DNA of 64,000 bases from Chloroflexota bacterium (GCA_021325635.1 JAJPGV010000057.1:7238-71237), one strand, 5' to 3'. Positions 18,427 to 21,158 are shown, counted from the first letter of the stretch. Numbers and translations: made by a program. Notes: generated from the sequence alone by a model not told the origin.

Positions 18427-18861
18427 TCAAAGTGGGAACGATCTCATGAAGTTCGCGGTCGCCAGATACTGCTGCTCCGCACCCTCGATCATCAGCTTGT
18501 GCGCCAGCATCACATCGGAGTTGGGGATCCATCGACGTGGTGCAATGCACAGCGTGCCGGTGATATGTGTAGCCTCATAGACCTGTACCCGCGCCGGATC
18601 TGCCGGGATACGGTAGATACGTCCATTTATGCTCGGGCTGTCTACCTCGACGTATCCGTGCTGCTCGAGTTGTTCGCGCTGGGTGGGCGTCAGCAAGCGC
18701 TGCAGGAGAGCCGCTGCTCGAGCCTCGGCTTCGGACCGCTGCTTGGCTCCAGTCCACGAGCTGCCGCGCAGCCCCTGGATTATCGCTTCAGCTGCGGCGG
18801 TGATTGCCAGAAGCGCGCAGAGCAGCACCACGCCGGCGAGGACGCCTGCAGGGACGCTCAT
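18427..18861 (-). CDS. Hypothetical protein with N-terminal TM anchor (partner of Ub-like gene)
   Basis: ATGA overlap with the upstream gene; TM segment then EARAAALL..LLTP.QREQ...GY.EV...YRI...LCIAP...DVMLAHKLMIE. Confidence 0.75.
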   Translation of the reverse strand: MSVPAGVLAGVVLLCALLAITAAAEAIIQGLRGSSWTGAKQRSEAEARAAALLQRLLTPTQREQLEQHGYVEVDSPSINGRIYRIPADPARVQVYEATHITGTLCIAPRRWIPNSDVMLAHKLMIEGAEQQYLATANFMRSFPL

Positions 18862-19103
18862 CCGCCTGCCATGCGGGGGACGATGATGATCTCCTCGGCC
18901 TGTGGATCGAATTGATCGATGCGAACCGCCGGCTCGTCCGGCGTGACGCGGAACGCAGCGCTGCCTCGAGCGCGCTCTTGCCGGAAGATGCGTTCGGCCT
19001 CCTGGATTGCAGCGAGGGCTTCGGCCTGGCCGCTTGCGGCAAGCTCAGGATTCCACGTGACACGCGTATCGCCTCGGGCTGAGAGAACAGACAGGGTTGC
19101 CAA
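18858..19103 (-). CDS. Small ubiquitin-like (beta-grasp-like) protein ending in GG
   Basis: 81 aa ending EEIIIVPRMAGG; GAGGAAAGGAAG RBS upstream. Confidence 0.75.
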   Translation of the reverse strand: MATLSVLSARGDTRVTWNPELAASGQAEALAAIQEAERIFRQERARGSAAFRVTPDEPAVRIDQFDPQAEEIIIVPRMAGG

Positions 19104-19295
19104 TGACTATCTTCCTTTCCTCACGCTGTGCATTGATCGGGAGCCTGGGACGAGCAGTTGCTGTCCTTCTGCCTAACAATGCCCCCGCAGGGATAAACAG
19201 GCCATGAAAACGCAATGAATAGAGGGATGCGACCATTTGGCAAATGGCAAGCAATGCGATGGCGGCACTCACGACAGCCGTGCAAACCGAGGCGC

Positions 19296-19499
19296 TCAAC
19301 GAGATTCGTCCAGCTCGCCGAGCGCCTGGATCAGGGTCTTCTCGGCCTGGAGCAGCGCCAGCTCTACTTCGTGATTCGTGGGCTCGGCCTCCAGCCGGCG
19401 TTTGTCCCGGGCCCAAATGCCCACACAAGTCTTCAGCTCCAGCAAGCGATCGTAGTAGTCGTAGTCAATGGTGACGTTCTCGGTTTCGGGTGTTGACAT
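19296..19499 (-). CDS. Small helical hypothetical protein
   Basis: Strong AGGAGGTG RBS; 67 aa. Confidence 0.65.
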   Translation of the reverse strand: MSTPETENVTIDYDYYDRLLELKTCVGIWARDKRRLEAEPTNHEVELALLQAEKTLIQALGELDESR

Positions 19500-19567: not shown

Positions 19568-19756
19568 TTGAGCCATGCTCCGTCGCGGTGCCCTGAGTGC
19601 CGCATCGCGCAGCAGGGCGGAAAGCTGCGCCAGCTCTATCGAGCCACGTGTGACAGCTGCCGGAGGCCGGCCCTTGTGCCATTCGAGCCGACGGCGGGCC
19701 GGCCGGTGTACTGCAGCGACTGCTACAGCCGTCGTCCCAGCGTCCACGCGGCATAG
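19568..19756 (+). CDS. CxxC-x17-CxxC zinc-ribbon protein, N-terminally truncated or degenerate
   Basis: PSRCPECR...YRATCDSCRRPALVPFEPTAGRPVYCSDCY; upstream in-frame YASRG preceded by TAG at 19532. Confidence 0.6.
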   Translation: MSHAPSRCPECRIAQQGGKLRQLYRATCDSCRRPALVPFEPTAGRPVYCSDCYSRRPSVHAA

Positions 19757-19821
19757 CTATTCCCGCGTTGTTGATGCGCTGTTGATTCCTAGGTCATCGC
19801 CCACAAGCCACGCTTGGGAGT

Positions 19822-20184
19822 GTGACAGACAGCATTCGGTTGAGCGCTTGGTCAAGTGTTTTGATGACCTGAATGCTGTCGACGACGTCTCGTTCCGAGT
19901 GGATTCTGGTGAGTTCTTCGGCTTCCTCGGCCCAAACGGCGCCGGAAAAACCACGACGATCAACGTGCTCTGCACGCTGCTGCGGCCTACCTCAGGTCAC
20001 GTGGTCGTCAACGGCTTCGACGTGAGCAGGCAGCAGCAGTCGGTCGGCGCTCCATCGGCCTGGTCTTCCGGAATGCCACGCTCGGCGATCGGCCATGAGC
20101 GTCGTGACAGACGTCGCGCTGTTGGGCGCTTTCGCGGCCGTGATGATCGCGCTGGCGATGCGCGCTTTCGAGGTTCAGGATTGA
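19822..20184 (+). pseudogene. Relic of a DrrA/DrrB-type ABC exporter operon (5' ATPase fragment joined to 3' end of permease)
   Basis: VERLVK...GEFFGFLGPNGAGKTTT, then after a frameshift RRSIGLVF, stop at 20096, then VVTDVALLGAFAAVMIALAMRAFEVQD* in a third frame. Confidence 0.7.
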
Positions 20185-20207
20185 AGTCCACTCCAGGAGG
20201 ACACGCC

Positions 20208-21158
20208 ATGTTCAGTCAAATCCTCGTGCCACTCGACGGCTCCGCCCTGGCGGGGCGAGCAGTGCCCTACGCTCAAGGGCTGGCCCAGCGCACTGGTGCG
20301 CAGCTGCTGCTCGTCCGCGCAGTCGAGACCTGGGCGTTCCCCAATGGCGGCCGGCGCCACCGCCGGGAGCAGGAGCTCCTGGACGAGGCGGAGCGAGAGC
20401 TCGCGCCTCTCGTCCAGGGGCTGAAAGCGAGTGGCCTTGTGGCGGCGTCTTCGGTGCAGCCGGGTGAAGCGGCAATGGTCATTGCCCAGGCCAGGCACTC
20501 ACACCAGAGCGACCTGATCGTCATGTCCACGCACGGCCGTGGAGGTTTGGGAAGGCTGGCCTACGGCAGCGTGGCGGAGCGCGTCCTCCGTGAAGGTGCT
20601 TGCCCGGTGCTGCTCATTCCGCCGGAAGCCGAGCAGGGGTGGCGATCGTCCACCGACGGAAGAGTCGTGGTGCCTCTCGATGGCTCGGCTGTGGCAGAAG
20701 TGGCGCTTGCTCCAGCCGTCCGCTTGGCCCGGCTGTTCGGTGCCGGGCTCAGCCTGATGCAGGTGATCGAGCCGCCGCCTCCGGCGGCGTACAGCGGCTG
20801 GGCGACGGCCACGCCATATGAGTATCTGGACGTGCAGCAGTGGGCTGAGGAGGCCAAGCCGTACATCCAGGGTGTGGCCAGCCAGCTTCAGTCCGAAGAT
20901 TTTGCCGTCGATGCTGAGACGTTAGTGGGCTACGCGGCCCCGGCCATTGATCAAGAGGTGCGGTCCAAGAGCGCCTTGGCTGTCGTCATGGCGAGCCATG
21001 GTCGGTCGGGCATTGAGCGGGTCGTGTTGGGCAGCGTTGCCCAGGGCGTGGTGCACCGCACCAATGTGCCGGTTCTGGTGATAAGACCCGGAGCAATCCT
21101 CGATCATGACGCCGCTACGCAAGCCGGCAGCTCGGCCCGTTCGCCCGCTGGCGTGTGA
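20208..21158 (+). CDS. Tandem-domain universal stress protein
   Basis: MFSQILVPLDGS, STHGRGG...GSVAE, second VVPLDGS/ASHGRSG..GSVA repeat; AGGAGG RBS. Confidence 0.92.
   Translation: MFSQILVPLDGSALAGRAVPYAQGLAQRTGAQLLLVRAVETWAFPNGGRRHRREQELLDEAERELAPLVQGLKASGLVAASSVQPGEAAMVIAQARHSHQSDLIVMSTHGRGGLGRLAYGSVAERVLREGACPVLLIPPEAEQGWRSSTDGRVVVPLDGSAVAEVALAPAVRLARLFGAGLSLMQVIEPPPPAAYSGWATATPYEYLDVQQWAEEAKPYIQGVASQLQSEDFAVDAETLVGYAAPAIDQEVRSKSALAVVMASHGRSGIERVVLGSVAQGVVHRTNVPVLVIRPGAILDHDAATQAGSSARSPAGV

Follow-up and report, generated by a model that had tools for sequence, protein, structure and literature searches.

The window analysed here, a 64,000-nucleotide stretch of a Chloroflexota bacterium genome (GCA_021325635.1, JAJPGV010000057.1:7238-71237), contains two overlapping minus-strand genes, one for an 81-residue small protein that ends in Gly-Gly and one for a 144-residue partner protein that carries an invariant cysteine. 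Open reading frame (ORF) calling places the small-protein gene at 18858..19103, with a TTG start (19103-19101) and a stop codon (18860-18858) that directly follows the GGC GGA codons of Gly80 and Gly81 (18861..18866); the encoded C-terminus reads ...EEIIIVPRMAGG, with PRMAGG at its end. Choosing this TTG as the start gives the N-terminus MATLSVLS, which aligns with the MAxLRVLS of homologues, and the purine-rich stretch GGAAAGGAAGA found 6-16 nt upstream of it (19110..19120, minus strand) is a candidate Shine-Dalgarno-like sequence. The partner gene (18427..18861) begins with an ATG that overlaps the stop codon of the small-protein gene within the sequence ATGA (18858..18861, TCAT on the plus strand), an arrangement that implies translational coupling. 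Its product is predicted to consist of an N-terminal membrane anchor, which covers approximately residues 5-27 (18781..18849), is a helix in the AlphaFold2 model and has a predicted N-out/C-in orientation, and a cytoplasmic alpha/beta domain in which the codon of the invariant Cys105 (TGC, 18547..18549) corresponds to the end of the fourth modelled strand. Both ORFs and the ATGA overlap had been reported in an initial annotation of this DNA and are evident in the sequence. A second complete small-protein/partner pair lies on another contig of the same genome, and a scan for promoters and terminators found nothing.

Neither protein had a significant match in Pfam, NCBIfam, PADLOC or PHROGs, and profile searches of PDB sequences likewise returned nothing for either of them. 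No description of the pair was found in the literature on ubiquitin-like and beta-grasp proteins of Ktedonobacter or Chloroflexi. Both genes are real, and the numbers of homologues are far beyond chance. The first search for the small protein yielded 35 homologues of near-constant length in which G80 and G81 are invariant, and a Pfam scan of these 35 members gave scattered sub-threshold matches only. A scan of GTDB with one genome per species identified 291 small-protein loci; the 80 of these that were fetched are nearly all labelled Chloroflexota, including Ktedonobacter, Thermogemmatispora, Ktedonosporobacter and Tengunoibacter. Among 301 sampled Chloroflexota genomes, 62 encode the small protein (40 of 171 genera), usually in two copies each. 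When the search was extended by profile to 1.84 billion representative proteins, 1420 clusters at 50% identity were recovered at E<=1e-3. One member carries the label Candidatus Microgenomates, and it is this single metagenome-assembled genome label, together with metagenomic phage contigs, that makes up the reach of the family beyond Chloroflexota.

In 84 of 87 fetched loci the reading frame stops exactly after GG, with the remaining three bearing one or two extra residues, and 96 of the best 150 representatives in the large protein library end in GG, most of the others being fragments or having tails of 1-3 residues past GG. The AlphaFold2 model of the small protein (pLDDT 91) comprises strands at residues 2-6 and 13-17, a helix at 27-45, strands at 49-53 and 71-75, and a flexible, low-confidence tail. 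The order of elements in the model, beta-beta-alpha-beta-beta-beta, is that of ubiquitin, and it reproduces the succession of strands and helix that the initial annotation had read from the sequence. All top Foldseek matches in the PDB are beta-grasp domains (PB1, RA, RBD, FERM-F1, a USP UBL and a bacterial multi-ubiquitin protein), although the matches are weak (E>=0.047, TM ~0.4). A beta-grasp topology is thus supported by the model, with no close solved relative.

A third paralogue clade (MEMGTLRIMSRRGDD...IVPRVVGG) occurs at five loci (L013, L022, L027, L039 and L053) with no partner adjacent. As judged by eye, this clade has conserved surroundings of its own, with one ORF shared upstream and, downstream, a gene whose product has a hydrophobic segment.

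We examined the neighbourhood of the small-protein gene across the fetched loci. Of the 87 loci, 75 have a co-oriented partner homologue no more than 200 nt downstream; the two genes overlap by 4 nt in 42 of these 75 linked pairs and are separated by no more than 20 nt in 68. When all flanking ORFs were clustered, conservation across contexts was seen for the partner and for no other neighbour. The distance matrices of the two proteins are correlated (r=0.81), a value that is confounded by their shared phylogeny. Genes for DegV, FakA, Asp23, a Zn-ribbon protein, DUF3090 and a 2-hydroxyacid dehydrogenase also recur nearby; these represent clade-specific synteny and were rejected as module members. 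The 67-aa ORF at 19296-19499 (minus strand), which had been suggested as a third member, was dropped as well, as none of the 87 related loci contains a homologue of it. Its ribosome-binding context is good, but it is an orphan and possibly not a gene.

The partner family comprises 882 proteins, all of them named hypothetical and devoid of Pfam domains. The window's partner, which was aligned with its subfamily in a set of 65 sequences, has the motifs LCIAP and DVMLAHKLMIE together with an N-terminal hydrophobic segment. In the AlphaFold2 model (pLDDT 90), the transmembrane helix runs into a long helix (residues 5-56), which is followed by a second, short helix (59-68) and four strands (70-105); after Cys105, at the end of strand 4, come a proline-containing loop, a long helix (114-135) and a final strand (137-140). 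Among 63 homologues, lysine and arginine average 0.02 in the 15 residues before the hydrophobic segment versus 2.65 in the 15 residues after it. With positive charges on this side, the partner domain should face the cytoplasm, and it is therefore predicted to occupy the same compartment as the leaderless small protein. The description of the partner as membrane-anchored applies to the subfamily found in the window, to which the membrane segment is confined; the other subfamilies are anchor-less.

Residue conservation within the partner domain centres on the cysteine. All 216 unique full partner sequences, drawn from the bacterial subfamilies and from phage versions, contain Cys105, and the same set shows almost no variation at Pro113, Tyr83 and Glu129 or in the acidic character of position 116. 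Different residues take the place of His121 and Lys122 in the other subfamilies, where the histidine becomes Q, K, R or L, and in phages; within the 65-sequence alignment, Lys122 is invariant. Thus, of the Cys/His character that had been attributed to the partner, the cysteine stands and the histidine does not, a pattern more in keeping with a thiol acceptor than with a Cys-His hydrolase. The order of helix, four strands, cysteine and helix had led us to consider an E2-like fold, which was rejected, as neither Foldseek nor Pfam supports it; an E2 trait that the model does present is an invariant cysteine at the end of a four-stranded sheet. The weak Foldseek matches of the partner are to RWD-like-headed coiled-coil proteins of the Csm1 and Spc24/25 types (TM ~0.3). 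Pfam scans of all 65 members yielded scattered sub-threshold matches and no consistent family; one of these matches, to DUF6313, was seen in 7 of the 65 and, in the one member examined, is confined to the N-terminal helix. By sequence and by predicted structure, the partner domain belongs to no known family.

The association between a GG-ended small protein and a cysteine-bearing partner extends to divergent members of both families. The weaker genome matches include, besides a second subfamily (MGRIIVANRRGHQ...EEYQIIAPIAGG), two additional types; all of these end in GG, and two members bear one or two extra residues past it. These divergent small proteins directly precede a divergent, anchor-less partner (for example ...YLCINPTYPLPEEEFFAHLYLYVRD...). 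In addition, nine viral contigs in IMG/VR (14-527 kb) carry genes for small-protein relatives that are extended by approximately 40 residues at the N-terminus, and such relatives are also present in two GenBank records, one from Virus Rctr197k (197 kb) and one from an uncultured phage (595 kb). In most phage records the next gene encodes a protein of 246-425 aa whose C-terminal ~110 residues constitute the partner domain, with three ORFs intervening on one contig (L147), and the same gene order is kept by the bacterial subfamilies and the 11 phage records. The partner of Rctr197k was recovered by a structure search of predicted viral proteins (E 1e-6, TM 0.62).

Taken together, these findings support a dedicated module, composed of a GG protein and a Cys protein, that belongs to no described family. 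The initial annotation had mentioned similar pairs in other bacteria and in phages, and the genome and viral searches verified this. It had also named four outcomes that would speak against the module; the three that can be computed all favour it, namely the beta-grasp fold (seen in the topology of the model and in Foldseek matches that are all beta-grasp), the conservation of GG and of the partner cysteine, and the linkage of the two genes in other genomes, including those of divergent subfamilies and phages.

Several further observations were made on the viral loci. The Rctr197k relative (L151, KX853510.1: 6824-7252, 7270-8076, 9258-9995) ends in ...VPSTIPG, with a single terminal glycine. 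Located 1.2 kb farther downstream, amid CRISPR arrays and transposase remnants, is a second partner-like gene, Rctr197k_110, identified by a structural match in BFVD. A conserved gene found only in phages, of ~118 aa and zinc-ribbon-like, is positioned just upstream of the phage GG-protein gene (L142-L149, for example L144:4522-4878, and L151:1305-1688). Its Cys/His-rich motif is C-x6-C ... C-P-x-C-x-H-x-H; the L144 copy, which was scanned, had no match in Pfam or PHROGs, and the gene was not found in the bacterial loci. Lastly, a 397-aa uncharacterised protein (A0A2L0UZL2) of the Agrobacterium jumbo phage Atu_ph07 (MF403008.1) matches the partner model by Foldseek (E 8.6e-4, TM 0.59). The phage small-protein and partner profiles found nothing in the Atu_ph07 genome, which makes this a purely structural link; if the match is real, this cultured phage would offer a tractable host-phage system.

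The tail of the small protein is similar to that of bacterial sulfur carriers. In an hhalign comparison with 32 ThiS/MoaD sequences of related genomes, the local match consisted of the last 15 residues in an identical register (67-81 of 81 in both, P 9e-5), and the small protein, at 81 aa, lies inside the length range of ThiS/MoaD matches from related genomes (72-88 aa). Canonical ThiS/MoaD tails in this and related Chloroflexota genomes read, for example, SIVPAMAGG and SILPAMAGG, compared with IIIVPRMAGG here; SILPAMAGG is the tail of the CysO-like protein of the same genome, which the IVPRMAGG of the small protein resembles. Several of these canonical members bear 1-4 residues past GG, and short tails likewise occur in some relatives of the small protein. 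PF02597, searched in six frames against the entire genome, returned four other, canonical genes and neither copy of the new small protein. From these comparisons, the tail looks built for sulfur-carrier-like handling; the body of the protein is that of a different family.

The genome contains exactly one ThiF-family E1 and exactly one Prok-JAB peptidase, and the two are encoded together on contig 7 (L121: 4753-5973, 6004-6879; JAB, G000:C7:31349-31687). There they flank a gene for a 406-aa in-frame ThiS-PALP fusion, similar to CysO-CysM, in which an internal ...SILPAMAGG is directly followed by the cysteine-synthase domain. To function as a CysO system, such a fusion of carrier and enzyme would have to be cleaved at GG.

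The initial annotation had observed that no E1/ThiF, JAB, thiamine or molybdopterin gene adjoins the pair, which we confirmed, and had taken this to leave a classical sulfur-carrier role unsupported. The lack of an adjacent E1 does not by itself rule out such a role or a dependence on an E1; the single E1 and the JAB peptidase are located elsewhere in the genome, and the tail mimics those of the resident CysO/ThiS proteins. It is nonetheless unlikely, in our estimation, that the small protein is a divergent sulfur carrier of the MoaD/ThiS/CysO type, converted by the E1 to a thiocarboxylate, with the partner cysteine relaying sulfur as a persulfide or acyl-disulfide to some thiolation or cysteine persulfidation. 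Cysteine persulfidation has been described for Urm1 (PMC9574740). The small protein shares several features with PF02597 proteins: a beta-grasp domain of ~80 aa, a last strand leading into a P-x-hydrophobic-x-G-G tail in the same register, short tails past GG in some members, and a genome that has both E1 and JAB. In this genome, four canonical ThiS-family proteins already depend on the one E1, and a lone invariant cysteine suits sulfur relay. Against this, the small protein is not PF02597 by sequence, its central helix is long (19 residues) and its structural neighbours are PB1, RA and RBD rather than ThiS. In ~100 loci it is never beside an E1 or a sulfur-using enzyme (no ThiG, MoaE, CysM, PP-loop ATPase or rhodanese is linked), its constant neighbour being the new Cys-bearing domain, which has no similarity to known sulfur-relay folds. 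A metabolic role would also be hard to rationalise in huge phages.

Some relatives of the small protein continue past GG into another protein. In-frame fusions to full GreA (proteins P0252 and P0300; loci L152-L156, for example L154:251-967) form a 15-member near-identical cluster and are found in five divergent soil-metagenome loci (64-86% identity). The sequence at the junction, PRVAGG-A(I/V)S, is conserved, and these short contigs show no partner gene next to the fusion; among the fetched loci, no adjacency to GreA was found. The fusion would either be cut at GG like ubiquitin-ribosomal protein fusions or reflect a motif that matters when internal.

Together with the short tails past GG, the fusions imply some peptidase that acts at GG, and the partner itself could in principle be this enzyme, a GG-specific cysteine peptidase that trims tails or fusions. 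In the window's subfamily, Cys105, Asp116 and His121 are readable as a catalytic triad, and the invariance of Lys122 there would alternatively suit a partner that is a substrate or anchor modified at this residue. We consider either role very improbable. His121 and Lys122 are lost outside the subfamily, the three putative triad residues are within 17 positions of each other with the cysteine at a strand end, unlike known Cys-peptidase folds, and the fusions and the partner are not adjacent to each other. Moreover, most of the small proteins need no trimming, and the genome already has a JAB peptidase.

We propose instead that the pair constitutes a dedicated two-gene ubiquitin-like module in which the E1-activated C-terminal glycine of the small protein is passed to Cys105 of the partner, a reading that we hold tentatively and at somewhat less than an even chance. 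Three features argue for a system of reactive glycine and cysteine: the stop is held exactly at GG, a ubiquitin-like fold is joined to a sulfur-carrier-like tail, and the co-translated partner, an obligate one, has the cysteine as its only universal polar residue. The free C-terminal Gly-Gly carboxylate would be the working end of the small protein, and the single invariant cysteine the working residue of the partner. We infer that the two proteins, made together from overlapping stop and start codons, would form a complex, and that the C-terminal glycine would be adenylated in trans by the only ThiF/MoeB-type E1 of the genome, the one encoded in the CysO-CysM-JAB cluster on the other contig. 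The activated acyl group could then move to the partner cysteine as a thioester; if a thiocarboxylate were made first, an acyl-persulfide link or a sulfur transfer might take its place. The partner would thus act as a dedicated carrier or acceptor, E2-like in its working and not recognisable as an E2, and in the present genome tethered at the inner face of the membrane; any downstream target is hypothetical. Where 1-3 extra residues or GreA follow GG, a GG-specific peptidase, for example JAB, would have to act beforehand.

A number of results weigh against this proposal. The small protein has no match to PF02597 (Pfam, E<=1), and the global hhalign probability against the ThiS/MoaD set is 3%, which amounts to nil. 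For the partner, no UQ_con, Prok-E2, RWD or UEV match was obtained in any of the 65 members (Pfam, E<=10), and Foldseek against the PDB revealed no significant solved relative (best E 0.34) and no E2 in the top 50. Clustering of flanking ORFs found no E1, E2 or peptidase adjacent in related loci, and 11 of the 87 loci are without an adjacent partner; some of the latter are from the paralogue clade, and some have apparently lost the partner inside an otherwise conserved synteny. Although an E1 is encoded in 61 of the 62 genomes with the small protein, it is present in 274 of the 301 genomes overall (91% in the phylum), and because of this background the co-occurrence is uninformative, neither refuting nor supporting dependence on E1. 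Of the phage relatives, all end in GG except one that ends in AG and one in PG, such that only the last glycine is universal. Finally, the GreA fusions carry GG at an internal position and lack a neighbouring partner gene, and the motif could therefore matter for reasons other than a free carboxylate.

An alternative to this proposal is a purely non-covalent complex, in which the small protein is a beta-grasp regulatory or adaptor subunit, the PR(V/M)xGG strand and tail form a binding epitope (for example with a buried carboxylate), and the cysteine is structural or redox-sensing. Many beta-grasp domains are simple interaction modules, and the best structural matches here are domains such as PB1, RA, RBD and FERM rather than ubiquitin or ThiS; no activating enzyme is linked, the GG of the GreA fusions is internal, and the tight coupling and correlated divergence of the two proteins fit a stoichiometric complex. 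We nevertheless regard this possibility as rather unlikely. Beta-grasp domains that serve interaction only are not known to hold the stop exactly past GG across more than 1000 sequence clusters, the residues that follow GG where present are short and variable, which is a hallmark of a processed reactive end, and a cysteine that is invariant from phage to Chloroflexota is unusual for a purely structural residue.

Bacterial ubiquitin-like chemistry is known from the sulfur carriers ThiS, MoaD and CysO and from recently found multi-gene operons that combine E1, E2 and peptidase. SAMPs, TtuB and Urm1, dual-function modifiers of archaea and bacteria, rely on a single E1 from another locus and work without an E2; PMC9574740 is one source for this mode of working. 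The module described here shares with these proteins a GG-ended beta-grasp protein encoded away from a possible activating enzyme, and a single E1 that would have to serve several GG proteins. Those modifiers are not known to have a dedicated co-translated partner such as the Cys protein linked here in 75 of the 87 loci, and conjugation by the present module is hypothetical. With the Bil/Bub operons, CBASS Cap2/Cap3 and the Prok-E2 operons it has in common a terminal-Gly ubiquitin-like protein beside a protein whose key cysteine could carry a thioester, and the modelled partner topology (helix, four strands with Cys at the end of the fourth, helix) is reminiscent of an E2 core. However, the operon of the module encodes neither an E1 nor a deubiquitinase and has no PADLOC match, and the partner corresponds to no E2, UBC or RWD family, whether by model or by structure. 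The module also resides in stable chromosomal synteny, usually in two copies per genome, rather than in defence islands.

Three other systems were compared with the pair. Pup and UBact are disordered and have Gln/Glu after GG, whereas the small protein is confidently folded and ends in GG. The GreA fusions of some relatives, joined in frame past GG, parallel the ubiquitin-ribosomal protein fusions, although the protein in the window is free-standing and processing of the fusions is hypothetical. The ubiquitin-like domain of phage lambda tail-assembly protein I is of interest given that phage genomes encode relatives of the small protein, and phrog_32, annotated as a tail assembly protein, is a weak, non-significant match (E 0.16); the phage relatives, however, are not in recognisable tail modules. 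Overall, the module is closest to ThiS, MoaD, Urm1 and SAMP in the logic of its tail and in having its putative E1 elsewhere, is like the E2 systems in placing a Cys protein beside the modifier, and by sequence and structure falls outside both PF02597 and the E2/UBC families.

The pair differs from both known bacterial settings, having two genes only, neither of them in a named family, and yet it is common. If the cysteine accepts an activated glycine, the partner would represent a new carrier fold for ubiquitin-type transfer, and the pair would be the simplest such system known; if sulfur relay proves true instead, the pair would point to an unknown thiolation pathway. The fusions of the modifier to GreA and the phage versions, on contigs from 14 to 595 kb, provide two independent entries into its biology. 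A broader and more speculative extension of the proposed glycine transfer, which we consider doubtful, is that new GG beta-grasp modifiers, a housekeeping E1 acting in trans and a thioester on a non-UBC 'LC-domain' carrier make up a minimal ubiquitin-type conjugation shared by Chloroflexota, possibly CPR, and huge phages. Were this so, the membrane-tethered carrier of one lineage would allow membrane proteins or lipids to be modified, and the fusions of modifier to GreA would be a bacterial counterpart of the ubiquitin-ribosomal protein fusions.

Elsewhere in the window, a long plus-strand ORF at 19575-21158 looks composite, with an ABC-ATPase-like Walker A motif (GPNGAGKTT) near its start that is followed by apparent universal-stress-protein-type repeats; the ORF caller may have merged several genes, or a decayed ABC gene, into it.

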